Below are positions 15,760 through 51,998 of a stretch of 64,000 nt of DNA, in pieces. Each line of letters begins with the position of its first letter. Positions within the stretch are counted from its first letter, which is position 1. The stretch comes from Lophium mytilinum (taxonomy: Eukaryota): NCBI GenBank assembly GCA_010093605.1, contig MU004196.1, positions 208,606 through 272,605 on the forward strand, in the 5' to 3' direction. Made by a program: the position numbers and the translations under genes. Under the pieces are notes generated by a model. That model searched no databases and had not been told where the DNA came from. It saw only the letters and a list, made by a program, of their open reading frames with translations.

Positions 15760-18700
15760 ATGGCCGACTTCCAGGATCTGAATCTCGACGAACCGCAATT
15801 CCATGCAAGTGCATTTGTAGCACCGCTAGTCATCAACAAGTCGCCCCAGAGGTCGCGCAGCGCATCGCGACACACTCGGCAATCGTCCTCGAAGAGCGTG
15901 TGTAGGAGGACGACGTCGATACGATCCCAGTCTCAATCGCAAATATCGCCTCCTCTCACGCCCCGGACATCCCGAGAAGAACTCCCCTCCGCTGAGCCCC
16001 AGGCCGAGTTCCACAACTACCTGCGCGCGTTCTACCACTTCCATCCCACGTCTACCGTGTCCTCCTCCACGGACGAATCATCAATCACCGTCCCGATCAA
16101 CCAGGGCGATGTTATTCTGGTCCATTCGGTGCATCCCAACGGCTGGGCAGACGGCACCCTCCTCGCGTCAGGCGCGCGAGGCTGGCTCCCCACGAACTAC
16201 TGCGAGGCCTATGACCACCAGTCCATCCGCAGTCTGCTGAGCGCCCTCACCCATCTCTGGGACCTGGTGCGAGATGGCGAGAGTGGAGACCTAGACGTTT
16301 TCACAAAGCAAGATTATGTGAGGGGGATGATTGCAGGAGTCCGATTCTTCTTGGTAAGTCACAGCGTCATTCACCGTCGTAAGGGCGCTTGTGGCCGTCT
16401 CTAACGTTGAACAAACAGGAGAAAACGCAGTGCTTGACAAGGGAGTCTGCGCTTATTGTTGCCCACGTTGGCCTGCGACGCATGAGGAAAGGCCTGCTCG
16501 GAGACTTGTCCACGCTCGTCAAGACGGCGAAGAAGCTGCAAGAGCTCCTTCAAAGCGCCGGCTCGACGCTGGCCGTGTTCGAAGCACTGGACGAGCTCGT
16601 GCTGAAGGCCTTCAAGCTTGTGACACGCGCCGTACGGTTCCTCGACATCTGGGCGCAAGATGCCGTATCTGTGCCTGTGCCATTCGACCTCAGCGAGTCC
16701 ACCAATAGGCCTCTGACCCCACCAGTTGACTCCGCTGACGCTCAGATCGCGCCCGCAACACTGCCCTTAGACCTGGGGCTGAACGAGGATGCGACTGCTG
16801 ACCATGCGGCTATGGTGCCACAAGCGAGCTCATCGACACGGGACGAGCGGGAAGATCCGCGAAGCCAGCAGCATCATCCACGAACACGTAGCCGCGCATC
16901 GTTCACCTTTGCCCTTCCCCCCACAGAGTCCAGCGCACCACAGTCATCGTCGCTGCTAAGCGCCCAGCCTCAGTCGAAGCGCCTCTCCGTAACGCACCGA
17001 CTGTCGTACACAGGCAAGTCGCAGGGCCTCCGCAGACAGAACCTTGCTTCGGAGAGGCTTTGCGCTGCACACGACTCCTTCCTCGGTTTCATCGGCTCAT
17101 TTATTGGGCTGCACTTGCAGTCACGATCATCCTCAGAACTTCTTATGACAACCCGCGACTCTGTCATTGCCTGTCGTCAACTACTCACCGTCGTGGAAGG
17201 AGTATGGGAACGCGACTCGCAACGATCCGACCCACTGGAGCACGCAAGGGCTACGATGTACGTCAAACTCTCGGAGCTCGTGCAGGCGACGAAGGAGATG
17301 TTCTCCAACTCCGAATCTGTGAATGGCGAGGATGTCTTCATGCCGGACTCTGGTAAGCAGCTGGTTACCGCTGCCACGAGCTGCGTTCGAGCCGCCGGCG
17401 AATGCGTCACCAAAGCTCGTGTCGTCATTGAGCGTATTGGCGACTTTGAGTTCGAGCAAGCTGGCCCGGGCATCTCGGAGACTATTCTCGAAGGTATCAA
17501 CGCGAACTTGGAGAAAGAGACGGAGACCTGCAATCAAGAGCCGCAAGACACGGACAAGCCATTGCCTGCACCGCCACCAGAACCAGTTGCCCGCCCTCCT
17601 CCACCGCCGCTACTGATATCGGAATCCAAACCCCTCCCGGAACCACCCGCGCCGTCACCAATACTAAACCCCGAAACCCTACACCCAGTTATCGTCGAGA
17701 GCCCGACTGCAGTGTCTTTCAGATCGTCAAGGTCCTCGCTACCACCACTCAGTCAGCTTCCCATCCCCACGCTTCCGCAACCAAGCCCTTCAGACGCATC
17801 TCAGAGTCCCGCGAGTGCTACTCATCGGTTCTTCGGCCAAGCCGGGAGAGCAGATAGCGTCAATGTGTCTGTGGCAGGCTCAACTAGCACCTACCCAAAC
17901 AGTGTGAGAGGCGACAGTGCAAGCATCATCTCTGAGGTCTCAACAAGAGCAACGACCCCGGATCATTCGCCCACAACCCGCCATGGTGAACAAGCCTTCA
18001 TAAGCAGCTTCGGTAGCACTTCCGAGCTTCACTCTATCGCGAGCGAAGAGACAACCGGACTCGAAGCCCAACTGCTTGAGAAAACCTTCGTACATGAACT
18101 TATATACAACAAGGAAGGCCAAATTTCGGGAGGTTCGTTGCCGGCCCTCGTGGAGCAGCTTACAACGCACGAGTCGACGCCGGATTCTATGTTTGTCACG
18201 ACGTTCTACTTGACTTTTAGGCTCTTCACTACTCCCGTCGATTTCGCGAACTGTCTCATCGACCGTTTCGACTACGTCGGCGATAGCCAAGAGGTTGGCG
18301 TGCCTGTCCGCCTACGCGTGTATAACGTCTTCAAGGGCTGGTTGGAAACCCATTGGCAAGCCGACTGCGACCCTTCAGCTCTTGGTGTCATTCTCAGCTT
18401 CGCAACCGGAAAACTGAGGACTGCCCTGCCCGCAGCTGCGAAGCGACTTGCCGAGTTGACCACGAAGGTCACTGAAGTGCGCGCTGGTGCCTTGGTACCT
18501 CGTCTTGTATCCTCAATGGGCAAGACTGGAATATCAAGCACTATCTATTCTGCTGTGGACAGTGCAGCACCTAACCCGGTCATCTCAAAAAGCCAACTAA
18601 ACGCCTTGAAGAATAAGACTTCACAGTGCAATATTCTCGACTTCGATCCCTTGGAGCTTGCAAGGCAGATCACCATCATCGAGTCGAAGCTCTTCTGCTC

Positions 18701-21117: not shown

Positions 21118-23298
21118 ATGAGCAATTTGATATCCTCCTTCATCATCGATCCTGTAGTACGACAAGCCCGCCGGTTCTCAACCGCATACTCTTCTGACGA
21201 GGCGCATAGCGATCGCGATCTTTCACATGCCACTCCACGTCAAGGTACGGCGGATCACCGCCACGATGAGCACCACGAGGCCGACACTGCGGTAGAGATA
21301 GAGGACGACCAGCATGCGGATCTGCTCGGCACATTTCGCCGATACTCGACGTTTATTCGTCGGGGGCGGCCAGCGTCACGACCACGGGAGCGTGCAGCTG
21401 TGGAGAACCCCGACCTCGAGGCGTTATCTATCATCTCTACCGCGGAAGAAACTCCGTTGGGCGTGACTACGAGTGGCCGCCGCAGCACGACATCGCTCCC
21501 AATACATGGACCTGCAGACAGAGGCATGTCCCAGAACCCGACGCACGGCATACCCCAGGGCTTCCGCCCGCTGAATCGGGCTGCCTCGACGCCCGTATAT
21601 CCCGTGGCCGCCCACACTGAGCAGGAGAGGAGGGACAGAGCTGGCTCTGGGGGAGGAGGGAACAATGCGCCCGTCATGTCTGAGCTGCTGCCCGCAGACG
21701 ATGGCATGCGCCATCTTAGGAGGAGGATACATGAGATACGGGACTTGACAATATCAAACGACGAGAAGGCACGCATGATGCACTATCTCATGACGGAGCG
21801 GTACCATCTTCTCAGACCACAGTCGCCGGTCAGCCTTGCGTCTCACGACCGGCCGTTCACCCCTAGCTCTACGCACTCGCTCCTCGACTCGGATATGCAC
21901 GCCTCGTCCCCGATCTCGATGACCTCGGACATCGACCCTGAGAACCCTTACAATCTCCGCCTTGGGGACACCCAGCCTAGCTACAGGACAAGAGCGGTAC
22001 GAGCGGACGGCACGGGCGACGATGACGATTTTGATACAGCGGAGGACGGAAGCTCATATGGCTGCCAGCACTACAAGCGCAATGTCAAGGTCCAGTGCCA
22101 CAGCTGTCACCGGTGGTATACATGCAGACACTGCCATGACACGGTAGAAGACCACAGCCTGAACCGCAAGATGACCAAGAACATGCTGTGCATGGCGTGC
22201 GGTACACCCCAGCCCGCAGGACAGCATTGCCGACAATGTGGACGGGAGGCTGCGTGGTACTATTGCGCCATCTGCAAGCTTTGGGACGACAACAGCAGCA
22301 GGAAAATATATCATTGTGAGGAATGTGGGATCTGCCGAATGGGAGAGGGCCTAGGGAAAGACTACGTCCACTGCAAGGTATGTCTAGTGTCTCTGTAAGG
22401 GGTTGATGATGCTAACCATGCCAAGAGGTGCAACGTGTGCATTTCAATAGCATTCGCGCAGTCGCATCGCTGCGTTGAGCGGGCTACCGAGTGCGACTGT
22501 CCTATTTGCGGCGATTATCTCTTCAGCTCATCAATACCCGTGGTATCGATGCCTTGCGGGCACTATCTCCACAAAGAGTGTTACAATTCCTACATGCAGA
22601 CAGCATATAAATGCCCGATGTGTAAGAAGAGCGCGGTAAACATGGAGCTACAATGGCGGAAACTCACTCACGCGATCGAAAGCCAGCCAATGCCCGAGGA
22701 ATTCGCAGACACAAGAGCCGTCATCCAGTGTAATGACTGCTCTTGCAAGTCTTCCGCAAAGTATCACTGGCTGGGAAACAAATGCACCAATTGCGACTCG
22801 TATAATACTAACGAGCTCCGTATTCTATCAGGAGAAGAGAGCGATCAGGCGGCAGAAGCCATGCTGTCTACGGAAATGGATACCGCGCCTAACTCGCCGC
22901 TTGCTAGACCCTCGGTCGAGATCAGAGCCGCACGCCCCTATTTCCTCAGCGTTCATTCAGGGCAGGATGACCGGTCCCGTGCCTCAACAGCCGAGCAACC
23001 CGCTTCTCTGCCTTACCAGTTGATGGAGCGTATGAGCCGGTCGCTGTCTCCTCTCAGGAACTATCTTAGCCGCTCACAAGAGGACATTAGTCATCCGACT
23101 GAAGACGAAGATGACGATATCCGAGACCGCTGGGGTACCGATGGACGTTTCCTCTCTGGTGCAGAAGACTCGAGCGGCTCTGATTCGGATTCCGACAGCG
23201 ACGAGAGTTTAAACGACGCCGATGGGGCGCTTGACGACGATGAAGCCGATGATGCTAATGAAGACTTGAACGACTTTGATCTTGTTGGACACCCTTGA
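21118..23298 (+). CDS. CHY zinc finger / RING E3 ligase (Pirh2/RCHY1-like); intron 22378-22425
   Basis: GCQHYKRNVKVQCHSC...CRHCHD, IYHCEECGICRMG, RING CPICGDYLF...CGHYLHKEC...CPMC, C-terminal CNDC...HWLGNKCTNCDSYNT. Confidence 0.92.
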
Positions 23299-29931: not shown

Positions 29932-30268
29932 CAGTAAAACCTCGGTATAGTGTTTCCGGTGGATAGTGATATACTCTATAGAGTGATAAATTTCGGCTGA
30001 CCGTGGAAATTTGTATGGGCATAGTAATATTGTTGGTTACTATGGTATCACTAGTACCCTCTCACCAAAATCATACTAACCAGGGGGGTTTTTGTATGGG
30101 CGTGTGGTCCGTGGCACCTCCGACCACCCTCAAAGACCCCTTAATCTCGCTCTTTTGGGGGCTGATGGCTTACAAATCACCCACACGTGACTTTTGTTAC
30201 AGTGATACTCTCTGTATAGTGATACGAAACCTTGCAAAAAACCGTATCACTATACCGAGGTTTTACTG
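29932..30268. mobile_element. Tc1/mariner-pogo-type MITE, 337 bp
   Basis: Perfect 21-bp terminal inverted repeats CAGTAAAACCTCGGTATAGTG, TA on both flanks (29930-31, 30269-70), repeated internal AGTGATA motifs, no transposase ORF. Confidence 0.9.
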
Positions 30269-30522: not shown

Positions 30523-32547
30523 TCAAAACAGCCCTCTCCCGGACGCTAGCCGCACAAAGTCGTAGGGAACGTTTTGCCCTACCAGCAACCTGAGCGTTTC
30601 CACCGTCGTCCAAGCACTCACGTCTGCAATGCCGTACGCTGTCCACCCTGACGAGGCCGCTATAACAAGTGGGTCGCCTTTCCTTGGCCCGTTGGCGAGG
30701 TCTACAAACACCTTGCCCGCAAGACTACCCGGACTCCTTCCGTCGACACGGTAGTGCTTCAACAGAGGAACCACCAGCAACGACTTCTCCGCAGGGAGCG
30801 CCGAGATGATGACGAATGGCTGCTGCAGTCTCTTGACGTCGTCCACCGATCGAACTGGGTCGACCTCGGATGCCAAGGGCCCATGCGTCTTGAAACCGAT
30901 AGTATATATCGGGCCGATGCCCAGACTCTTCAATGCGAATATTGCTGCCGCGGCATCGGCCTCTGCACCTGCTAATACCAGTGCTGCCTGTCCGCTGTAG
31001 GCCGAGGGAACGAAATCGCGGCTCAGTGTTGCCCGGATACCTTTCCATGTCGCGTTGTCTCCTATAAAAGTAGGTCGACCTCCCTCCGAGCGCACTGTGA
31101 CCACGTCGACCTGTCCGATCGTCCTAGCAGCCGTCGAGAGTGTGGGCAGGTATGGAGCCGAGGCTGCAAGAGGAGGATTGATGTAGGCTCCGCCGAAACA
31201 TGGTCGCCGGATGATGGCGTCTATTGAGCCCTTAGGCGCCCTCTCCACGAACCTGAACTGATGCGGTAAGCCCAGCTCATTGAAGCATTTCTCAAAGAAC
31301 ATAGCTTGTGTCATCGACCGATAGCTGCCAATACCGTATATGTCCAGTTTGGGCATTTGGCCCATGCTATGAAGAGCCACGTTGATTTCTGCAGCGCTGA
31401 GCTGGCCCGGCGCAGCAATCATGGGGAGTAAAGGATGGGTGATTGGTGTAAACACCTTGTTCAATGCCCGGGACAGCTGCCCCATAGGCCCCATGTTGAG
31501 TCCAGAGAGGGGCGGATGGGGGTAGGCCGCCTGTATGGTAGAGCGAAAGTATTCTAATTCGTAGTTTTCCTGGATGGAATTGACCAGAGCAATCATCTTC
31601 ACTACGTCGCCGTACACAGCACCTCTCCTAAAGAGCTCTTGTGCCTCCGGCGATGTCCATTTGAAGGTCCCAGAAAAGTCATGGAAAGCCGAGATGATTT
31701 TGCTGTTCCCTTTCTGTTCCGCTAAGCGTCGTCTAATATCTTCTGGGAGCCATAGCTCGACATCAACGTACTCGCACCCCCACTTGATTGCCCTGGAAAG
31801 GTATTCGTAGAAAAGGTTCGGATCGTCCATAGGGAATCGGCCATTCTCTTTGGTGCACCTTGTGGTGTAGATGATAGGCAGCTCTGTACGCTGCCGCAGA
31901 AGCATGAGTTGCTCGCCAACGTACTTTAAACTCGGGACTCCACTGAATGATCCATCAGGGAGGGGTTCTTTGAGGAGATCAACTCTCAACTCCACTACGT
32001 CTGCTCCAACGGAAAGGATGTCTAGGTTCGGTAGGGCAGCATGGACGTCAGGGAACGTGGTGGATATCTGCGTAGTCCGCGCTTTCTTCGTCAAGTCCTT
32101 GTGGTGGCTAATTTGACCAAGAACAAAACCAAGAAACCGAGCTACGTCTCTTCTAAAGAATGGTGTCCTCGTATAGAGGTACTCGTAAGCACAAAGCGAT
32201 GTGAGGTCCTCATACAGCGGTTGGCCTCCGTCCACACAGTGTGTATTTATAACTAGCCGTGATCCATTCCAGTCCTGCAGCTGGGAGCCAATAGATATGT
32301 TCGATATTCCGTAAATGGTTCCTTCGAATCCCGCTTTTATTTCTGACAACGATGCGGCCAGCTCCCAAGGTTGGCCTAGAACATCTGCGATGGTATTGAC
32401 AATGCTCTCCTGTCCCGCCCCGTATATAACGAGCAATGCTGGCTTGGTCCGATTAGGAGCTCCATTGGGGAGCTCCCGGATGTCGACGAAGCCGTTGTGC
32501 TTCAGGGTGGAGGGGGGGATAACGTCGGTCTGTATCATCGTTGCCAT
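30523..32547 (-). CDS. Type I 3-dehydroquinase plus shikimate dehydrogenase-like protein (AROM C-terminal / QutR-like)
   Basis: GADVVELRVDLL, PIIYTTRCTKENG, EYVDVEL, SAFHDF, GDVVKM, NMGPMGQLSR, AAPGQLS; downstream GDNATWKGI, SDH-like and degenerate. Confidence 0.85.
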   Translation of the reverse strand: MATMIQTDVIPPSTLKHNGFVDIRELPNGAPNRTKPALLVIYGAGQESIVNTIADVLGQPWELAASLSEIKAGFEGTIYGISNISIGSQLQDWNGSRLVINTHCVDGGQPLYEDLTSLCAYEYLYTRTPFFRRDVARFLGFVLGQISHHKDLTKKARTTQISTTFPDVHAALPNLDILSVGADVVELRVDLLKEPLPDGSFSGVPSLKYVGEQLMLLRQRTELPIIYTTRCTKENGRFPMDDPNLFYEYLSRAIKWGCEYVDVELWLPEDIRRRLAEQKGNSKIISAFHDFSGTFKWTSPEAQELFRRGAVYGDVVKMIALVNSIQENYELEYFRSTIQAAYPHPPLSGLNMGPMGQLSRALNKVFTPITHPLLPMIAAPGQLSAAEINVALHSMGQMPKLDIYGIGSYRSMTQAMFFEKCFNELGLPHQFRFVERAPKGSIDAIIRRPCFGGAYINPPLAASAPYLPTLSTAARTIGQVDVVTVRSEGGRPTFIGDNATWKGIRATLSRDFVPSAYSGQAALVLAGAEADAAAAIFALKSLGIGPIYTIGFKTHGPLASEVDPVRSVDDVKRLQQPFVIISALPAEKSLLVVPLLKHYRVDGRSPGSLAGKVFVDLANGPRKGDPLVIAASSGWTAYGIADVSAWTTVETLRLLVGQNVPYDFVRLASGRGLF

Positions 32548-33025
32548 AAGAGTGTAGTTTGCCTGGTGGGATCGCGCGTAGCTAGCCGTAGGTGTTGAAG
32601 CCGTTGATGCGGAGCTGCAGCTCTACAAGAATGCGACGGGACGAGTTCAGCGGGCAAGATTTGAGGGCCGTCTCTCGCATCTCCGTGGTTTTGGGGGAGA
32701 AGATACTCCTGTGGGCACGTATTTGCGACAATTCAGGCGTGTCGGGTACTCGGTGCAGGCTGCAATGCAGTTTTGAGGTGGTGATATAGGGAGGAACAGC
32801 GAGGATGAGATCGTCGTGGGTCAAGTCAGGTCGCCGATAGCAAGGTAGCACCATTGCTTGCGCAGACGGAAACTCGAAAGCTCCGCGAAAGCCGCAGGTC
32901 ACTTTTGTTCCTCGTATGGGTCGTCGTGGTCTGTTGCCGAGCGGAGGTCTGGGAGGGGCCTCTCATGGCGCGAGAGGGCTTGGGGTTCGCCGGAACGGAT
33001 TGCCTCAAGCATCCTTGCCCTGTGT

Positions 33026-33083
33026 CGGGCACCATTTATCCGCTATGCCCTCTCCAAGCAGGCCATGGACGACATTTATCCGC
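33026..33083. promoter_or_regulatory. Two putative Zn2Cys6 binding sites (C/T)GG-N11-CCG sharing CATTTATCCGC
   Basis: CGGGCACCATTTATCCG at 33026-33042 and TGGACGACATTTATCCG at 33066-33082, 40 bp apart, about 500 bp upstream of the QutR-like ATG. Confidence 0.45.
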
Positions 33084-34749
33084 CAATCCGCGGGCTGCGC
33101 ACCAGGCCCAGCTTTCCTCTCCGCCGGTGATATAACCCTGCCCAGCTTAGCTGCCCGCCTGTAACCTTTGTAGCATCCCAGGGCGAAATTACTGGCCGGC
33201 AAATGGGACGACGACCCTCCCAGTGGACGAAATCGGACGCTCGACTATATGGTATTATAGGCGAGGATGTAGATTGGCACCGTATGCGTTCCATAGATAT
33301 GGCGTTCCTGCCTGATGCCATGGCGTACGGCCAAAACAGTCGAGAGGACCTCTGTGAGCTCGTTAAAAAGCATGACGTTTGAATCCGAAGGGAAGTCCGC
33401 TCGTCTGCTGCATGCACAGCGCGGCCTGGTGGAGGATGTTACGGCCCACGCCCGGCACGATGCTATGATCTATCCTAGTCACAGTAGCATCCGTCAGCCT
33501 AGACTAGGCGGATTCAAGGCAGAGTCTTCGGTCGGCAGTGCGGATATTTTCCGTCGGCAGAATGAAGAGCAAGTATACGTGCGTAGTCACCTCCGTCTAA
33601 TCCGCATGGCGTGTTACATCCCCAAGGAATTTGCAGAGGAAGTACTTGTACATTGTTAAGTATCAATCCAGAGGTAAAGGACTTTCCTACCGCATAGTAC
33701 GCAAGCACTCAGTGCCAAACCCTGAATCCAAAGGCAGGTATCGAGGCACCATAAGCACGAGCGAGGCGATATCTGTCTCGACTCTTCAATGCGGGAGCGG
33801 CCGCCGCAGGGGGGTCGAACCGTAACAGCAATGGAGATAAGAAAGCCTTGTGCCTATGAAAGCATTACCCCAAATGATATACCAATTCCCAAACTTAGGG
33901 ATGTTCCTTTCCTTAGATGTCACTTGTCCATAGCTTCTCTAGCCACCGCACTTTCTCTCCCTACTATTTTTCAATCTTCGATCCTACGCCTTCTTCTGAA
34001 AAGCACTTTCCTGACACTTCTCTACGATAACTCAGCTGAGGGGTACCGACGAATCACCCCTCCGATTATATCTTATACTAATAGGCAAATCGATATACGA
34101 TAGGGTTACCTTTAAGCGCTCCTTTGATAGAATATCTGATGTCCACATTAGTACTATGACCCGGAAGCTAGTTTTTCAACGTCATTTCTGTACTTCCTGG
34201 ACAGTCAGCGAAGTGTACCTCGAAATCAAGCCCTTAGCTACTTCAGTGTTTATTTTTTGGCCTCTCATACAAAACCGAAGGCATAGCCTCCGTGCCATCC
34301 ATTATGTGCATCATCGAATATATTCCAGATTGAAATTTCAGACGACGACATGCAAAATAAACTAATGTAAAGGACAAATGAGACTGTTGACGTTCCTAAA
34401 GCTAAAATGTATTCTTGGAGCATGTGAATAAGCCACAGTACCGGTATACCGACTCTGCATGCACCCATCACGCATCAATTCACAGCAAACACGCGGATAC
34501 GTTCCCCAATCTGACTAGCTCCCCACACGCACCCAGAACCGCCCATGTCCCTTCAAACCTGCTAAACCCTGCCTCAAACCCCTCTCTGCCGTGTCTGATT
34601 GGCCGCAAACTCATTCCAGTGACTCTTTGTGCGCCTGCCCCCACCAAGCCCGCTTTCCCCCACCAAGATCGCTTTCCCCCTCCCGTCTGCCACACTATCA
34701 GTACAGAATAATTTCCCGCAGTCCCAAAATCCATCGATTTACGGATCCA

Positions 34750-34876
34750 GTTCCGCTGGCGCAATGGTAGCGCGCCAGACTTCTAATCTGGAGGCTGTGG
34801 GGTATGTCATTTACCTTGCTGCGAGTAATCATGTCCGCGTACTAATGATGTATTAGTTCGAGCCCCACGCGGAATG
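34750..34876 (+). tRNA. tRNA-Arg(TCT) interrupted by a 55-nt GT-AG intron (34802-34856) between G53 and T54
   Basis: After removing the intron: acceptor GTTCCGC/GCGGAAT, D stem GCGC/GCGC, anticodon stem CCAGA/TCTGG with loop CT-TCT-AA, T stem GTGGG/CCCAC with loop TTCGAGC; oligo-T runs downstream. Confidence 0.92.
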
Positions 34877-34884
34877 CGATTATC

Positions 34885-34902
34885 TTTTTGTCATTTTTTT
34901 TT
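34885..34902 (+). terminator. Pol III oligo-T terminator of the tRNA gene
   Basis: T5 at 34885-34889 and T9 at 34894-34902, just after the discriminator base. Confidence 0.7.
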
Positions 34903-35198
34903 GGGTCTTCTGGCTTGGATTCATGTTGATGGTGAACGACACAGGCTTGGGTGGTGATGATGGTGCTATTTAGAATTTTGAGGCGACGAGCGCTCCGATG
35001 AGGACTTCTAGTTTATGGTGGTCATGGGGTGAGTTCAGTTTACAGTACCATAAAGCTGATCACTAAGTTGCTCATGCTGGTTGTATGGAGAGGTGTTTTA
35101 TTACGCGTTAGAATTATGTAGTTTTACATCCAGTGCGTATACTCTTTGCACCGTAATTTTTGAAGCCGTGAGCTACACGACTGACGCAGAATAGTATA

Positions 35199-36195
35199 CT
35201 AAAGTAATCCCGGTATAACAGCCTTCCTGTTCCCGACTTTATCCCTCCCAAATTTAGCCACATACCACCTCCATCCTTGAAGCGCTCGCGGCAGCATAGT
35301 CGCAATCTCATTGACCAAGAAGCTCCTCGCAGGATGACAGTTCAGACCCCCAACCATCCAGAATCCAGCCCACTCAATCCACTCGCAAAAGTAGTGCGCG
35401 TACAAGATGTATGCGAACAGGCCATTTTTGGGTAGCATATAGATCTTGTCCACCGTCTCCGGCGCCTGGCCTGTCTTCTCTGCTTCCGCTCGCTGTCTAC
35501 GATCGGCCGCACGCCGGATCTCGCGAAGATCGTCATCATGGTATATGTTGGCCAGCAGGCCCCAGCCCCAGATCACGAGACCGACTTCCATCCAGTATAG
35601 ACGCCCTGCCCAGTCATACACAGTGGTTGGGCCATACCCTGCGAGCCAGCCGCCGATCGAGATGGCGTTGCAGAGTTGGAAGCAAGTGGCCGCTGCCCAG
35701 ACGAAGGGGTGGATGGGAGACATGCTTGGGTTGAGGACGAGGGGCGCGAGAAGGGCGCGGTATAGGTAGTGAATAGTCTATTGTAATACGTCAGTACCTG
35801 CAGGCAGCCGACTGTCGTACGACGTCGATTCTGGAGTTATTTCGACTCACGAAGCATCCTGCCATAGTCCAGTTTCCCCAAGGCAGCTCCTCGATTCCCA
35901 AATGCTTCGGAAGCGTGAACATTATGTACAGAAGAGTAGTAAATCCAGGCGCTTCCATAGTTGCCCACGCCAGTTTGCCGGGGATGTTGAAGCGGGAGTC
36001 ATTGGAGGTTTTGCCTTGCGGGTACCAGTCTGTGATCCATTGCACGGCTGCAAACTATAATGCGAAAGAGGGTTGAGCTTTTGATCTTCGTGCCAGTTGA
36101 CGACGGGTTCTTACCAGTGGGAAGAGTTGCCAGATCCAACACAGGGTTTCCCAGTTCTCCCGGGACGGCGGAAGCCAATTCTCAATGAGTACCAT
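35199..36195 (-). CDS. 3-oxo-5-alpha-steroid 4-dehydrogenase family protein (3 exons)
   Basis: FNIPGKLAWATMEAPGF, IHYLYRALL, NIYHDDDLREIR, YMLPKNGLFAYILYAHYFCEWIEWAGF, RKAVIPGLL. Confidence 0.9.
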
Positions 36196-37333: not shown

Positions 37334-40300
37334 ATGGCCGACCCTTATAATCACAAAAGGGCCCCACCAGGCAACAACGGGGCTGCACAAGGCTGGACCG
37401 CACCTCAGCAAGATACAACCAATAATATACCAGATTATCCCCTTTTCCACAACAACTACGCCCAAATCGAGGCACCGCCCCCATCGCATAATCTTGGTCT
37501 TGTCCAATACGAGTCACCTGTTTTTTCCAATGCTCACTATCTATTCCCTGAGCCTGGGAATATTACCCGACCTGAGGACCACTGGCAGGTGAGCTTCGCT
37601 CCTTCTAGTTCAAAATGTAGGCGGAGGAGGGCCTTGCATGACCTAGTGTCACCCATCACCGGTCAAGCAGCTGAAAGAGTTGCTTGTGTGTGTACTGTAT
37701 TTGGCAAGGCAGTGACGATATCCTTTAGCCTCGCCCCTTAGTCTATTCGAAATTGCAGCAACTAACATTTTAGCTAGACCAGTAGCTCGAATGACACTGG
37801 ATATGGATCGCAAGCAACAAGCTCCGGCACTTTTGCTATACCAAGACATCCAAACCCATACCCGTATCAACAAGACTCGTCCTTGTCCTCGAGCAACTTT
37901 TTCATCTTCTCCATGGAGCCGCCCTCAGACATTGACGATGCCAATGTTCGAGGCCAGCCGTATGTGTTTGGAGAGGACCCGAGCCAATACTACGCTGTTC
38001 CGGACCTGGGAGCAGAACTTGACTCCGAACATGCAGGGGGCTCCCAACCAAGGAAGAGACGGCGAACCAGGAGCTCAGAAGCTCAAAACACCTCTGATCG
38101 TCTCCGCCCTCCTGCCAAAATTCCTAGACAAAACAGAAACCAGACCTCCCAATTAGGACCACAAGCGACGGGACCGACCTTTAACACTACAGGAGCCTTT
38201 TTAACTCATCTAGGCCATCCTGTTCAACAAGGTTATGGAACACAGCCCGTAGTCATCGAGCGTGGAGCTGCCCCTGGAACAACGAGGGAGTTGGGACCAC
38301 CTCTAGGCTATCGTTTACCAGCGTCGTCTGAAGCTACCCTTCGCAGTGTCCTCGAGAACCAATTTGCTGACGGCTCATTCCCATCCAGCGAAAAGATTGA
38401 AGCACTGTCAACCTTAATGGATTTGCCACCTCAAGCTATAGATTTCTGGATCAGAACGCATTTACGAGGCCGAGACGTACTGCACCGCTCTAATTCGCCT
38501 TCCGTATCCTTTCCATCAATCAGAGCCGCACGTCCGCTTCCGGCTACAATAGAAAATGCAGCTGGTCCGAATCCCAATGATCGCTTGCCCCAAAACGTTC
38601 GTCAAGCAATCGAGAAATATGTGGAGGCTTGTAGCAAGAAGCGTGCGAGAGGAGACGGCCGCCGGAAGGTCAACAATGGTCGATATGCGTGTACAGCTGA
38701 CTGTGGGTATCTCACTAAACGCCCGTTCGACTGGAGAAGACATGAGGAAACACATCAGCCACAGGAGTTTTGGTTGTGCGAGATCTGCAGAACTGCCTTT
38801 CCCCCAAAAATGGTACTCGTTAGTAGAGGCGATAAGCTGCGACCACACATCAAGAACGACCATCCTGAAGACGACGCGGACGATGTAGTAGAGCAATCGA
38901 AGCAAGACTATGTGGCTGACTTCAAACGGAGATGTGGGTTCTGCGGTGATCGCTTTGAATCTTGGGATTCTCGCAACACTCATATTCTTGCACACTTCGA
39001 TGGGAAACTTGAGGGAGGAACCCGACATATGAGTGAATGGAGAGATACTTGGTCTGAAGAAGAGAGTGAAGATGGAGATGGAGGCGAAGACCCTTCGGAT
39101 GACTCGGACGACTCAAGCAACGATTCTGACGGGCAAGACTTTCCGCATCAGGGAGACCACGCTGGTGCATCTGGAGGAAGTGGCAGTAGCCACGAATATG
39201 GCCAGCAGCAGCCTCCAGGCAATTCAGGCCAGCAAGGACAACATGGACAAGGCGCACTCCAAGGGCATCAAGAACAGACCCATGGCGCTAATTTTGACTA
39301 CGGTTGGCGTTTACATTTGTCTCCAGCTGATCGATCGCTGTCTAACCTGAAGCGCACTCCATCGGAGATAAAAGGGCCTTCTCTACAAGAAGCTGTGGTT
39401 TCCAGGATGAAGTCGGGATATGGATATTGTGGCAGTCATCGTATCATTTCCCTGTAAGTTTCTCGACCCTCATCTTCAAATGCCATACTCAATCCTCTTG
39501 CAAATATAGGCCCACCGATAAAACCCCAAATCGTCAGCTTACTGTACCTCGAAAATTATACCCTAGCCCCCAACCCGAGAAACAAGAACACTCTTTCCGG
39601 GTAACTCGAAACGTCGGAAGGATAATCGGGAAAGGAACCTACGGATCCGTTGATATTGTCGAGAACCGCGTGACAAAGCAATTGTACGCTAGAAAAAGGT
39701 GTCAGCTATCACCTGACAACCTATCCGGGTTAAAGCCATTCCAACGAGAGGTGAAGATCATGAAAATGGTGGCTCATCGTCATGTTGTGCGCTTGGTATC
39801 GGCTTATGTTCAAGACTCCTGCCTGAACATCGTTATGAGTCCACTTGCGCAAGGCACGCTGCGCCAATACCTAGATCTTCCGACCATGCCGCAGGGAAGT
39901 GCCCCTCGCATACGCTCCTGGGTTGGGTGTCTATCATCGGCACTATCTTATCTTCACGCCAACCGCATTCGGCATGCAGACATCAAACCACAGAACCTCC
40001 TAGTAAAAGAATCCGACGTCTATATTAGCGACTTTGGCATATCGAGGATCGTGTCGGAGCCGGACTCAACCTCCTCTAGTATTAGCCCCATGACTCCAAT
40101 GTATGCCGCACCTGAGATTGCTCAGCACCAGCCTCATGGGAGAAAGGCAGACGTCTTCTCGCTTGGATGTGTGGTATTCGAGATGCTGACGGTGGCCCAA
40201 GGCCATACTGTTGCGGATATTCATCGCCATCTAGGGATTTCAAATCACAAGAAACGACCGCGGTCTCGCCAAGCGTACTATCAGCAACAAAATGGACTGG

Positions 40301-42078
40301 TCTCCTGGATCGAAAACTTGTGTTCACCAACAAGCACGATGGCCCAGCGTGGCCTTTGGGATGTGTGCAAATGGATGCTGGAGAACAACGCAGAACAGCG
40401 ACCCTCTTCAAGCCTTCTAGTAAAGTATCTTCGTCAGCTTTGGCTTTCTCAGAATCTTGGGACCTGCCCAGATTGCATGAGCACCACTGTTCCATCGAAA
40501 ATGGAGCCCATGCCCCCTACCCTGACCCCAGTATCTGACAGTCAACAAGTCTGGGCTGGCCCCATCCCAGCACAAACTTCCTTTCGACGTAGTCGTCCTC
40601 TGAATCCGAACGTCAACCCTCCGGCTAGTCCGCGGTCTTTCTACTATACTCCACCAGCGACCCCGCCGCTGACGCCTTCGAAGGGAAGCTCGTCATACTC
40701 TAAATTTGAGTATAGTAAGATGACAGGAGATGCATCAATATTGCTATCAAAAGCCCACAATATCATAGAGCAGGAGAAAGAGTCTATTGATGCCGCCTCC
40801 ACAGCAGATGCACAGCCGTACGATGCGCTTAAGCTCTACATGACGGTACCTACCGCCTTCATTTCTCTCGTGCCATCGGATAGTGGACGGATACACCTCC
40901 AGGTCACCTTCATGGTTCTTCCAATCGTATTGATCTCTCAACCCCAAAATGAAGCTAGCGAAGCAAGCGCACACCATCCATCCCGCAACGAAGGCTTCTC
41001 AAATTCATATCTTCCTCCACGAAAAGAGAGCTCCAAGATCGAAGCCCGCAAAGGAGGCGTGGTTCGGTTGATGGACAGGCAGACCTGCCATGTTTGTGGA
41101 CGACTTTTTACGGCCCCGAGGTTGACGGATTGCCGAGAATGCGGCCATATACGCTGCGAAGATTGTCCACGATTACGCCATGAGATTCATGAGAAGAAAC
41201 TCCCCCTGGATCGAGATCCAGATCTGACTGAGATTGGCAGCCATCTCAGTCCACCAGCATACTCCATCACGGACTCTACTCCGCTTCTTGAGGACCAGTA
41301 TGTGTTTGATAAAATTGTAGATCAGAACCAGGCGGTAGAGTACCCCAAAGAACATTTCCTGCAGGCCTCTCCTTCCACTTTTGATCTCCTTCGACCTCCG
41401 GTTCGAGACTGTAGGGACGAATGGTGGCGTCCTAAAACGCCATCGATAGACTCTCCGGACCTGGATCCGCCACGTTTGATGTCAGAAGGGTCACTCTATT
41501 CTGCGATACAGCCAGCCCATAAGAGGATGAGACTCAACTACCATATACCTGGATCCGAAGCTAACTCAACATCACCTCTTAATTTCGACGGACGAAGACG
41601 TATCTCAGTACGGTCTCAGCAAACCGTCCATATCAGGCAAGCCGGGAGTCCAGCCGTCTTCTCTAGAATAAGGGCTTTCCGCAAAGCCGTCCCAGCAGTT
41701 GAAATTGCAGAACAGCCCTTCGAGCGTCTCCCACCTATGACCAAGTCGGCCTCCACGTCTACCAACGGCATTGATGCTGTTGCAAGGCTACCCATGCTCA
41801 AACATACTCAGTCAATATCTTACAGTCATACAGTGTCGCCGAACAGACGACGGAGGCTTTTCGGCCAGCTTTTGCCCTCGACTTCGCATGACGCGGTACA
41901 TTGTCCGCCCATCCTCCATCCTCAACTTGATGTCGGGCCCTCAATCGCGGTGTCTGGGGGTGCATTGAGCATCAAATCGACTGGAAGTAAGGAATTTGGG
42001 TCTTTCGGCCGGCGCGCGAAGAGGACGATGGTCAAGTTCTGGGCTGGGGGGAAGGGGTCGAAAGACATATATGAGTGA
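37334..42078 (+). CDS. ~1499-aa fusion: homeodomain-like, C2H2-type zinc fingers, Ser/Thr kinase, Cys-rich finger (introns 37589-37777, 39454-39509)
   Basis: Frame-consistent GT-AG splicing joins three ORFs; FPSSEKIEALSTLMDLPPQAIDFW; CTADC...WRRHEETH, CGFC...HILAHF; GKGTYG, RHADIKPQN, DFG, APE, DVFSLG; CHVC...CRECGHIRCEDC. Confidence 0.75.
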
Positions 42079-50828: not shown

Positions 50829-51998
50829 ATGGCCGCCACCGCCAACTCCGTCTACCCCAAGAGCTATGTCGGCTTCGACAGCATCACCTCGCAGATCGAG
50901 AAGAAGCTCGTCAAGCGCGGCTTCCAATTCAACATCATCTGCGTCGGTACGTGTCATGAGGATAGCACTACTACAATCTCGCGTCTAACACCTCGCAGGC
51001 CAGACCGGACTCGGCAAATCCACCCTCATCAACACCATCTTCGCCTCACACCTGATGGACAGCAAGGGCCGCCTGTCACCCGAGGAACCCATCCGCAGCA
51101 CCACCGAGATCCAAGCTGTGTCGCACATTATCGAGGAGAACGGCGTGCGACTACGCCTCAACATTGTCGACACCCCCGGCTACGGTGACCTGATCAACAA
51201 TGAGCGCTGCTGGGACCCCATTGTCAAGTACATCAAGGACCAGCACAGCGCGTACCTGCGCAAGGAGCTGACTGCCCAGCGTGAGCGCTACCTCCAAGAC
51301 ACCCGCATTCACTGCTGCTTGTTCTTCATCCAGCCCTCCGGCCACGCCCTGAAGCCCATTGACATTGTTGTCCTGAAAAAGCTATCTGAGTTTGTCAATG
51401 TGGTCCCTGTGATTGCGAAGAGTGATTCTTTGACTCTAGAGGAGCGTGCCGCATTCAAGGAGAGGATAAAGGAGGAGTTTGCTTTCCACAACCTGAGGAT
51501 GTACCCGTATGACAACGAGGAGCACGACCAGGAGGAGGTCGCGTTGAACGCGTCCATCAAGGTAGCTCTAGCTATTAAGGCGGCCAAGTGGAACAATTGC
51601 TAATAAGAGTATAGAACATTCTCCCATTCGCCGTCGTTGGCTCCGAGAAGACCATTGTCGTTGCAGGCAAGCAGGTTCGCGGCCGCCAGAACCGTTGGGG
51701 CGTGATAAATGGTACACTTTGGATATACTTGACCGTTCGAACATGCAGCTAATACTTCCTAGTTGAGGACGAGAACCACTGTGAATTCGTCTACCTTCGC
51801 AACTTCCTCACCCGTACCCATCTGCAAGATCTCATCGAAACTACCTCGCAGATCCACTACGAGTCCTTCCGCGCCAAGCAGCTGCTTGCTCTCAAGGAAA
51901 GCTCCGCTGTCGGTGGCCACGGCTCGCGACCCATCTCCCCCAGCGCCGACCGGGAACTCAGCCGGAACAGCCAGCGTATGACGATGAATGGATACTAA
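50829..51998 (+). CDS. CDC10: Septin, Cdc10/AspD class (4 exons)
   Basis: [64 protein letters not shown]. Confidence 0.93.

Follow-up and report, generated by a model that had tools for sequence, protein, structure and literature searches.

A candidate spliceosomal intron in the T arm of a nuclear tRNA-Arg(UCU) gene from an ascomycete fungus

Canonical tRNA introns of eukaryotes lie between positions 37 and 38 (37/38), and the tRNA splicing endonuclease together with a ligase takes them out (excerpts of PMC12530127 and PMC10946435). In the same excerpts, tRNA introns and spliceosomal introns are treated as unrelated classes with separate machineries. The tRNA introns at non-canonical positions, described for archaea and for red-alga and nucleomorph genomes in excerpts of PMC4090602 and PMC3978253, depend on a bulge-helix-bulge (BHB) motif.

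Spliceosomal introns have been reported in other non-coding RNA genes of fungi. The U6 snRNA gene of S. pombe, which is transcribed by Pol III, has an mRNA-type intron that the spliceosome excises (Tani and Ohshima 1989, via an excerpt of PMC5855946). A Pol III transcript can therefore be a spliceosome substrate. Fungal U6 genes have up to four unrelated introns each, with canonical signals and an unconserved interior, and many of these introns are species-specific (Canzler et al. 2016, via the same excerpt). Expression and splicing of most intron-bearing fungal U6 genes still need experimental validation, as stated in that excerpt of PMC5855946. Spliceosomal introns are also present in U1, U2 and U5 snRNA genes and rRNA genes of ascomycetes (Takahashi et al. 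1993, 1996; Bhattacharya et al. 2000, via the excerpt of PMC5855946). Introner-like elements and recent intron gain in fungi are the subject of parts of PMC5647799 and PMC3514964. For a spliceosomal-type intron in a tRNA gene, the first-pass annotation of the present DNA knew of no case, and no precedent was found in open-access and bioRxiv full texts either, with subscription journals and supplementary files outside the scope of that search.

A tRNA-Arg(UCU) gene was recognized on the + strand of the window, i.e., the whole 64-kb (64,000-nt) stretch of DNA analysed here. The gene is split in the T arm by a 55-nt insert, and its coordinates and motifs were read directly from the sequence. Both exons were assigned by the Rfam alignment and by ARAGORN on the in-silico spliced form. 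Exon 1 (34750-34801, 52 nt) comprises the 5' strand of the acceptor stem, the D arm, the anticodon arm with the anticodon TCT, the variable loop and the 5' strand of the T stem. Exon 2 (34857-34876, 20 nt) comprises the T loop, the 3' strands of the T stem and of the acceptor stem, and the discriminator G.

The spliceosomal-type intron at tRNA position 53/54 (34802-34856, + strand, 55 nt) was delimited by the sequence, ARAGORN, the contig of a close relative, the 55-mer signal test and a delete-and-scan search. It starts with the 5' splice site GTATGT (34802-34807), and this boundary is fixed by the cloverleaf and the relative's contig. The branch-site motif TACTAAT was found at 34840-34846, with the putative branch A at 34845, i.e., 11 nt from the intron 3' end. 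The 3' splice site TAG (34854-34856) is placed by the sequence and by the relative's contig, with an ambiguity of one G in the position of the junction. These motifs and their spacing had been described in the first-pass annotation, together with a location at 53/54, no intron at 37/38, and a last intron G that replaces G53 in the genomic B box. All of this agrees with the sequence, and the anticodon loop (7 nt) was intact in both Rfam and ARAGORN. Degenerate stems, missing arms or repeat-like flanks, as in a tRNA pseudogene or tRNA-derived repeat, were not seen, and the exons are intact.

The Rfam family RF00005 aligned end to end with 34750-34876 (model positions 1-71, 48.0 bits, E 3.5e-07), with 62 nt in the place of the expected 7-nt T loop. 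It was the sole Rfam match at the gathering score and the sole tRNA match at E<=10 in the 64-kb window. ARAGORN predicted no tRNA in the 64-kb window, and none on the genomic locus with default or anticodon-intron settings; a low-stringency run on the locus gave only a false tRNA-Ala call. After deletion of 34802-34856, a 73-nt tRNA-Arg(tct) with four paired stems was called, as expected from the earlier claim that the insert-free form folds into a cloverleaf with all stems paired. The earlier suspicion that standard tRNA scanners could overlook the gene is true for at least one scanner, i.e., ARAGORN.

In the delete-and-scan search, intron-like segments were defined as GTRNGY..YTRAY..YAG of 40-150 nt on both strands of the window. 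Only one of the 196 segments, namely 34802-34856, yielded a tRNA when it was deleted. The splice-signal test was passed by only 5 of the 127,890 55-mers of the window, the insert among them (approximately 4e-5 per 55-mer). AGA codons made up 28 of the 263 Arg codons in Pfam-supported exons. As a general point, any clean insertion gives back its host sequence by construction once it is deleted.

The insert was compared with mRNA introns of the window. Three of these are backed by domain architecture, i.e., 16354-16418 (65 nt), 22378-22425 (48 nt) and 50947-50998 (52 nt). The donors of the validated introns are GTATGT, GTACGT and GTAAGT and their branch sites CTAAC; the donor of 22378-22425 is GTATGT, the same hexamer as in the tRNA insert. 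The first-pass annotation had likened the insert in signals and size to the mRNA introns, and at 55 nt it does resemble the validated ones of 48, 52 and 65 nt. Its distance of 11 nt from branch A to the 3' end falls inside the range of 6-30 nt seen in candidate mRNA introns of the window. Its branch motif type, CTAAT, was the rarest among the heuristic mRNA intron candidates (1/47). With a GURNGU donor, a YURAY branch motif, a YAG acceptor and a host-like length, the insert has the features of a U2-type GT-AG intron. In the neighbouring gene, the upstream exons of the candidate intron 35778-35850 had no Pfam match, so Pfam continuity gives it no support.

The sequence of the insert was not repeated in the window. 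A blastn search against the 64-kb window returned the insert itself only, plus matches of 12 nt or less. A second near-identical copy, the sign of an introner-like family, was thus absent from the 64-kb window. Pairwise alignment of three tRNA inserts, i.e., the present one and two from a second locus described below (L005), and three mRNA introns gave no significant similarity over 15 comparisons. The best pair was the second L005 insert and intron 2 of the Mob1 gene (z = 2.6), whose score was reached in 1% of shuffles.

No BHB motif, in the hBHBh' or the relaxed form, was present at the window insert or at the two L005 inserts when all registers were enumerated. The maximum was three of the four central pairs, and the relaxed form was reached in no register. 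The MFE and centroid folds contained no BHB motif, and the MFE fold had no pair of 3-nt bulges. The insert also lies away from 37/38, the canonical location of endonuclease-type introns. A special RNA structure in the inserts was considered and rejected, because 36-47% of 500 shuffles folded at least as well across the three inserts. A 10-bp helix with three G.U pairs, between the donor region and the stretch after the branch site, was rejected likewise (equalled in 36% of shuffles; precursor z = -1.36).

Promoter-like and terminator-like features were found around and inside the gene, all on the + strand. An A/T-rich, TATA-like stretch at 34706-34714, about 36-44 nt 5' of the mature end, is a possible TFIIIB/TBP site, and the L005 gene also has an A/T-rich stretch at a similar upstream distance. 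The 5' leader was set at 34738-34749 from the start of the relative's contig at 34738. An A-box-like element, by comparison with the A-box consensus, covers tRNA positions 8-18 (34757-34767). A B-box-like element (34855-34865) begins with the final two bases of the intron and continues through the T loop into the beginning of the 3' strand of the T stem, and it fits the B-box consensus at 10 of 11 positions in the genomic DNA. The two elements are about 88 nt apart owing to the insert.

Two oligo-T runs resembling Pol III terminators follow the gene (34885-34902), i.e., T5 at 34885-34889, which begins 9 nt past the tRNA end, and T9 at 34894-34902. The longest T run within the insert is 3. The earlier description of an intact A box and oligo-T terminator agrees with the A-box-like element and the oligo-T runs. 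Judged by its sequence, the locus has the layout of a type-2 Pol III gene, with internal A and B boxes and oligo-T after the gene and none inside.

A second interrupted tRNA-Arg(UCU) gene was found among metagenome loci. This locus, L005, is a eukaryotic contig with a Mob1 gene and shows no synteny with the window. Its tRNA gene has two spliceosomal-type inserts, i.e., insert 1 of 56 nt at tRNA position 7/8 (GTACGT..TTCTAAC..CAG) and insert 2 of 72 nt at 59/60 (GTACGA..GGCTAAC..TAG). ARAGORN found no tRNA in the genomic form of L005. With both inserts removed, a canonical tRNA-Arg(tct) was obtained with a perfect cloverleaf and 7/7 acceptor pairs; the caveat to this pairing is that the acceptor 3' strand is G/T-rich and that five upstream 7-mers could also pair 7/7. 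The Mob1 mRNA intron at 349-421 of L005 has the same donor and branch motifs as the tRNA inserts. The tRNA gene lies 453 nt downstream of the Mob1 stop codon on the same strand.

The spliced tRNAs of the window and of L005 differ at 8 of 72 positions, and pairing is kept at all 8. Much of this divergence may be older than the insertions. Inside the three inserts, T runs did not exceed 4, and at both loci oligo-T was found no more than about 20 nt from the tRNA 3' end.

An insert-less form of the locus was found in a contig of a close relative (run X1, 1283 nt). The contig matches 34738-34800 and 34856-34900 with three differences. It carries the leader and the trailer of this very locus, and the gap is exactly 55 nt with GT..AG ends. 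The contig represents an allele without the intron or else an RNA after splicing, and it is most simply explained as DNA of the relative without the insert. If it is DNA, the insert is young, and intact exons and signals would therefore be expected even in a dead copy. The contig starts at 34738, directly after the sequencing adapter and 12 nt upstream of the tRNA, which hints weakly at the 5' end of an RNA, and it extends more than 1 kb past the tRNA. No X1 contig spans the intron interior, an observation that proves nothing alone.

Other sequencing data were searched for the locus. No run contained at least half of its 20 sampled words; the shares were 0.10-0.25 in 17 of the 18 runs listed and 0.00 in the 18th, which had been added by its species label. 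Runs X2, X3 and X4 were rejected as informative. They contained only exon 1-like pieces that run into a T loop with other acceptor stems, i.e., tRNA-Arg genes without an intron, or RNAs, from other organisms, and are thus uninformative on the locus. The gene's own acceptor stem tags its product.

In the metagenome survey, 47 of 47 loci that share the anticodon arm had no insert at 53/54. At the positions inspected, 46 of the 47 had no spliceosomal-type insert, and L005 was the exception. The intron-less gene at L044 was identical to the spliced tRNA of the window at 66 of 72 positions, and the six differences were all in the acceptor stem. With the insert removed, the tRNA of the window has the form of a functional tRNA-Arg(UCU), with a canonical paired cloverleaf that is conserved against intron-less homologues. 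A metagenome scan for G-T after an exon 1 end gave no hit, and a collection of prokaryote genomes gave none with the fungal-type Arg-UCU body as query. L014 and L022 were considered as further interrupted genes and rejected, being two copies of one repeat with a tRNA-Arg-derived 3' half; the D-arm region is replaced in both and the flanks are repeated. As a control, delete-and-scan was applied to the 47 loci, with a donor pattern that leaves out the second insert of L005 (GTACGA). The 25 calls that spanned a junction all fell in loci where tRNAs or tRNA arrays are present anyway, and the control is hence uninformative.

The explanation slightly favoured here is that the insert is a genuine spliceosomal intron of the U2-type, GT-AG class at 53/54 of a working nuclear tRNA-Arg(UCU) gene in an ascomycete fungus. 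The precursor would be transcribed, most likely by Pol III, because the A box, a near-intact B box and the oligo-T terminators are in place and the T runs of the intron do not exceed 3. The terminal AG of the intron would substitute for G52-G53 in the B box. U1 and U2 would recognise GUAUGU and UACUAAU, and the spliceosome would excise the 55 nt as a lariat. Pairing of exon 2 with the end of exon 1 in the T stem may keep the exons together, and RNase P and RNase Z would then trim the ends. Transcription, the polymerase, splicing by the spliceosome and the function of the product at this locus are what we infer from these features. The first-pass annotation had already proposed a Pol III pre-tRNA matured by the spliceosome, and that reading is supported in part. 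The wider proposal is that nuclear tRNA genes of some ascomycetes have repeatedly gained spliceosomal introns, in tRNA-Arg(UCU) at 7/8, 53/54 and 59/60, and that the spliceosome and not the endonuclease matures these precursors into essential tRNAs. Its chances are taken to be about even.

The gene might instead be a young pseudogene, one of several tRNA-Arg(UCU) genes that received a spliceosomal intron by reverse splicing, by reverse transcription and recombination, or by another route of intron transposition. The Pol III transcript would then stay unspliced, and the copy would not yet have decayed. This is the main rival and is unlikely on balance. The relative's contig lacks exactly the 55 nt, which makes the insertion recent if that contig is DNA; perfect signals and exons would then be expected from the origin of the insert and not from selection. 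An insert at 53/54 is absent from all 47 related metagenome genes, and annotation of the ARAGORN type would overlook it if such a copy were lost. However, L005 carries two inserts with intact signals and fully pairing exons, for which a dead gene must have been hit twice, or else the gene must have stayed functional from one insertion to the next. Promoter-like boxes and terminators are also intact at both loci, with T runs inside the inserts of at most 4. The preservation of pairing at all eight differences between the spliced tRNAs points the same way, although that divergence may be largely older than the insertions. The tRNA could also lie within a longer Pol II transcript, either non-coding or read-through from a neighbour, be spliced co-transcriptionally and be released by RNase P and RNase Z. 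The A box sets the position of a standard Pol III start (TFIIIC/TFIIIB geometry). The 7/8 insert of L005 puts 56 nt between a 7-nt first exon and the A box, which would bring such a start to lie within the intron, and this route is kept open because that insert is hard to fit with such a start. The position of the L005 tRNA, 453 nt past the Mob1 stop on the same strand, and the run of the X1 contig more than 1 kb beyond the tRNA also fit a long transcript. A contig that spans two genes is, however, no proof of a single transcript, and at both loci oligo-T runs still follow the tRNA 3' end at a distance of about 20 nt or less. In the window, the upstream + strand ORFs (32809-34711) show no coding signal (LLR per codon -0.06 to 0.04 versus 0.06-0.12 in Pfam-supported ORFs), and the closest gene on the downstream side runs on the opposite strand. 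A host protein gene on the sense strand was rejected on the same ORFs, which have neither coding signal nor a Pfam match. Pol II transcription of this kind is considered quite improbable.

Excision by the tRNA endonuclease and ligase, with the GT..AG ends as a coincidence, is very improbable. Non-canonical positions of tRNA introns are known in archaea and a few eukaryotic lineages (excerpts of PMC4090602 and PMC3978253), but neither hBHBh' nor relaxed BHB was found at any of the three inserts, and 3-nt bulges do not occur as a pair in the MFE fold. All three inserts moreover have a donor, a branch site and an acceptor at the right spacing. Least credible of all, and hardly worth entertaining, is a chance resemblance or an assembly artefact. 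The insert is a single copy in a single window, but the joint frequency of its signals is approximately 4e-5 per 55-mer, and a tRNA was restored by only 1 of 196 candidates. Its boundaries also coincide exactly with the gap in an independent contig from a relative, and a second, unrelated locus of the same kind exists in L005.

If the inserts are spliced, tRNA would be a new class of spliceosome substrate, and these genes would join U6 as a second example in which the spliceosome processes a presumed Pol III transcript. They would also offer a natural system for the study of intron gain in abundant structured RNAs outside the spliceosome. There is a practical warning as well, because ARAGORN missed both genes, i.e., those of the window and of L005. 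If the reading is true, scanners that are blind to such introns under-count fungal tRNA genes, and isoacceptors that appear "missing" may be hidden in this way.

Compared with the known systems, the locus has a mixed character. It resembles the canonical tRNA introns as an intervening sequence in a nuclear tRNA gene that must be removed to give a functional tRNA, but the insert sits at 53/54, carries a branch site between its GT-AG ends and leaves the anticodon loop intact. With the BHB-type introns it shares a position outside the anticodon loop and the possibility of several introns per gene, whereas their defining feature, a bulge-helix-bulge at the junctions, is absent at the window insert. 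Differences in presence and absence between close relatives are a likeness to introner-like elements, yet introners form families of near-identical copies, and the window insert has no second copy in 64 kb.

The spliceosomal introns in other ascomycete RNA genes are a further point of comparison. In the snRNA and rRNA genes, spliceosomal introns likewise interrupt structural RNA genes, including ones not transcribed by Pol II (rRNA), but tRNA is not among the host RNAs named in the excerpt of PMC5855946, i.e., U6, U2, U5, U1 and rRNA. The fungal U6 genes are matched in the number and distribution of the inserts, i.e., one in the window and two in L005 elsewhere, of unrelated sequences and absent in a close relative; the class of the host gene differs. 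The U6 gene of S. pombe is, like this locus, a short non-coding gene of a kind that Pol III normally transcribes, and each is split by an intron whose donor, branch site and acceptor are canonical. Intron gain in U6 is usually explained by reverse splicing, given that U6 resides at the catalytic centre of the spliceosome, whereas a tRNA has no such proximity. Splicing of S. pombe U6 was demonstrated by experiment, whereas splicing of the window insert is proposed from its sequence.

A tRNA-Arg(UCU) gene was read directly from the sequence as exon 1 (34750-34801, 52 nt), a T-arm insert (34802-34856, 55 nt) and exon 2 (34857-34876, 20 nt). The insert starts with GTATGT, ends with TAG and contains the branch-site motif TACTAAT (34840-34846), in which A34845 lies 11 nt before the insert end. 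This anatomy, i.e., exons, motifs and spacing, was exactly as the first-pass annotation had described it when 34600-35020 was read. The segment 34750-34876 was a full-length match to the Rfam tRNA model (48.0 bits, E 3.5e-07), in which 62 nt stand in place of the 7-nt T loop. No other tRNA signal appeared in the 64 kb when the threshold was relaxed to E<=10. ARAGORN detected no tRNA in the whole window, and nothing at the genomic locus with default or anticodon-intron settings. A tRNA-Ala call at the locus arose only in a low-stringency ARAGORN run and was rejected as false. After deletion of 34802-34856 in silico, ARAGORN predicted a 73-nt tRNA-Arg(tct) with all four stems paired. The anticodon loop of the spliced form was intact, so this tRNA has no 37/38 intron. 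The fully paired cloverleaf, the lack of a 37/38 intron and the failure of a scanner on the genomic form were therefore as had been anticipated.

Intron-like segments were defined as GTRNGY..YTRAY..YAG of 40-150 nt on either strand, and the window contained 196. By deleting them one by one, a tRNA was created in one case only, namely 34802-34856. In the splice-signal test in the right register, 5 of the 127,890 window 55-mers passed, the insert counted among them. The insert had been likened to the mRNA introns of the window, and three introns supported by domain architecture were indeed comparable in length and signals. These were 16354-16418 (65 nt, GTAAGT, CTAAC), which joins SH3 to RasGEF_N/RasGEF, 22378-22425 (48 nt, GTATGT, CTAAC), which joins zf-CHY to RING/zinc ribbon, and 50947-50998 (52 nt, GTACGT, CTAAC) at the start of a Septin domain. 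The CTAAT branch core of the insert was the rarest variant (1/47 heuristic mRNA intron candidates). No second copy of the insert was found within the 64-kb window.

A metagenome scan for the exon 1 end plus G-T gave no matches. A second scan, whose query combined the anticodon arm with the 5' strand of the T stem, yielded 47 loci. None had an insert at 53/54, and the T-stem led directly into the T loop in 47/47. One of these loci, L005, showed an exon-1 sequence nearly identical to that of the window, but its T loop gives way to GTACGA after six bases. The locus consists of exon 1 (1116-1122, 7 nt, acceptor 5' strand), an insert at position 7/8 (1123-1178, 56 nt, GTACGT..TTCTAAC..CAG), exon 2 (1179-1229, 51 nt), an insert at 59/60 (1230-1301, 72 nt, GTACGA..GGCTAAC..TAG) and exon 3 (1302-1315, 14 nt), then a T7 run. 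ARAGORN made no tRNA call on the genomic L005 sequence. Removal of the second insert only gave a call with a 5/7 acceptor stem, and removal of both gave a canonical tRNA-Arg(tct) with 7/7. Five upstream 7-mers can pair with the acceptor 3' strand, because this strand is G/T-rich, and a donor site follows only the one at 1116. The contig is eukaryotic. A Mob1/phocein gene is located upstream of the tRNA on the same strand (stop 661-663), its introns were validated by Pfam profile continuity, and one of them (349-421) has GTACGA and TTCTAAC, as in the tRNA inserts.

The tRNA body was the sole sequence common to L005 and the window, which makes the two loci independent. Their spliced tRNAs differed at 8/72 positions, and pairing was kept in 8/8 (three double compensatory changes, two changes to G.U). 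An intron-less gene, L044, differed from the window tRNA at 6/72 positions, all in the acceptor stem. The three tRNA inserts showed no detectable kinship to one another or to mRNA introns nearby. In one metagenome, two long contigs (L014:1140-1260 and L022:1140-1260) carried parts of a tRNA-Arg(UCU) resembling that of the window, namely the anticodon arm, the T arm and the acceptor 3' strand. They were rejected as interrupted genes; the D-arm region was replaced in both and their 5' and 3' flanks were nearly identical, which looks like a tRNA-derived repeat (SINE-like).

Excision by the tRNA splicing endonuclease was assessed by searching for its bulge-helix-bulge (BHB) motif. Every register at both junctions was enumerated, with the relaxed hBHBh' criterion included. 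The best register at the window insert had 3/4 central pairs, and no register of this insert, or of either L005 insert, gave the motif even in relaxed form. Neither the MFE fold nor the centroid fold of the window precursor contained the motif. The three tRNA inserts folded no better than shuffles (36-47% of 500 shuffles equal or better), which fits a spliceosomal, not a structure-defined, intron. A 10-bp RNA helix with three G.U pairs (34802-34811 / 34844-34853) can form between the donor region and the stretch just past the branch site. In the MFE fold this helix is stacked on the T stem; shuffled controls were no worse.

None of the public sequencing runs searched contained as much as half of the words sampled from the locus, and the four best (X1-X4) were compared with 34500-35100. 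In X1, from organism A, one 1283-nt contig (depth 289, library type not on record) lay on the locus. It matched 34738-34800 (1 difference) and 34856-34900 (2 differences), including 12 nt of leader and 24 nt of trailer proper to the window locus. Between the two matches exactly 55 nt are missing; their ends are GT..AG, with a one-base ambiguity in the cut. Past 34900 the contig diverges from the window, and organism A is therefore closely related to the source of the window but a different strain. A DNA origin of the contig, or an origin from antisense mRNA of the convergent neighbour, would mean that the gene of organism A has no insert, and the insert would then be a young gain here or have been precisely lost there. 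A sense RNA would be a spliced precursor. DNA-level absence is the more likely. Adapter sequence abuts 34738 at the contig start, which hints weakly at an RNA 5' end 12 nt before the tRNA. Whether DNA or RNA, presence and absence concern precisely the GT..AG segment, which is how an intron behaves. X2-X4 gave only intron-less tRNA-Arg sequences of other organisms. On 34759-34801, X3 had a 182-nt contig (depth ~2200) with the T arm and acceptor end of a tRNA-Arg from another organism, then adapter; tRNA-sized RNAs were thus captured in some of these libraries.

By protein similarity, the organism belongs to Ascomycota. The gene lies in a spacer of ~2.5 kb between two minus-strand ORFs, of the DHquinase family upstream (30523-32622) and the steroid-5-alpha-reductase family downstream (35199-35777). 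The plus-strand ORFs in 32809-34711 had no Pfam match and a codon log-likelihood of ~0, compared with 0.06-0.12 in Pfam-supported ORFs; a host protein gene on the sense strand is thus not recognisable. Elsewhere, a microRNA-precursor family was matched weakly and below threshold by both strands of 30200-30268 (24 bits, gathering score 75). Two long plus-strand ORFs in different frames (37778-39457 and 39346-42078) overlap by ~110 nt, one with a weak C2H2 zinc-finger match, the other with a protein kinase domain and a weak FYVE match. They are one gene via an intron in the overlap, or two neighbours.

On the best-supported reading, the locus is a functional tRNA-Arg(UCU) gene interrupted by a real spliceosomal intron, and its precursor would be transcribed by Pol III. 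Several features are compatible with such transcription. An A-box-like element at 34757-34767 is intact. Most of a putative B box (34855-34865) is recreated by the terminal AG of the intron, largely in line with the earlier B-box claim. The longest T run inside the insert is 3, and two oligo-T runs 3' of the gene (T5 34885-34889, T9 34894-34902) are compatible with Pol III and agree with the terminator described before. The trailers 34877-34910 and L005:1316-1350 share a motif closing the oligo-T run (T-run, GGGT, C/T, TTC), and the X1 contig goes on with a similar string. As the loci are otherwise unrelated, the motif may have arisen by chance or represent a common 3' element. The exons would be held together by T-stem pairing of the exon 1 end with exon 2.

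The weak point of the Pol III reading is the L005 insert at 7/8. With 56 nt between the first exon and the A box downstream, a standard Pol III start, set by TFIIIC/TFIIIB geometry, would miss that exon. At least in L005, transcription by Pol II or an upstream-directed start must be considered. The main rival to a working window gene is a young pseudogene, with its intron gained by reverse splicing and recombination. Such an origin would leave perfect signals and flanking exons, spliced or not. The two inserts in one intact gene at L005 make this reading less likely. AGA makes up 28/263 Arg codons in Pfam-supported exons, so the organism needs at least one working tRNA-Arg(UCU)-type gene somewhere in its genome. 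Functional splicing of the window insert is considered somewhat probable. The anatomy, the absence of an endonuclease motif, the independent two-intron analogue L005 and the precise intron-less form in the relative point to a real spliceosomal-type intron. The proposal of a spliceosome-matured pre-tRNA is partly supported by these points, with transcription, splicing and function inferred.

Spliceosomal and tRNA introns are treated as unrelated classes with different machineries in two recent papers on tRNA splicing (PMC12530127, PMC10946435). In the open-access and preprint full text searched, no tRNA gene was described with a spliceosomal intron, and tRNA is absent from the list of intron-bearing non-coding RNAs in a review (PMC5855946). 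The same review describes spliceosomal introns in U1, U2 and U5 snRNA genes and ascomycete rRNA genes, and up to four unrelated ones per gene, many species-specific, in fungal U6 genes. The U6 gene of fission yeast shows that the spliceosome can act on a Pol III transcript and splice it (PMC5855946). The fungal U6 introns are the closest known cases to the window insert, which would extend spliceosomal introns of non-coding and Pol III genes to tRNA.
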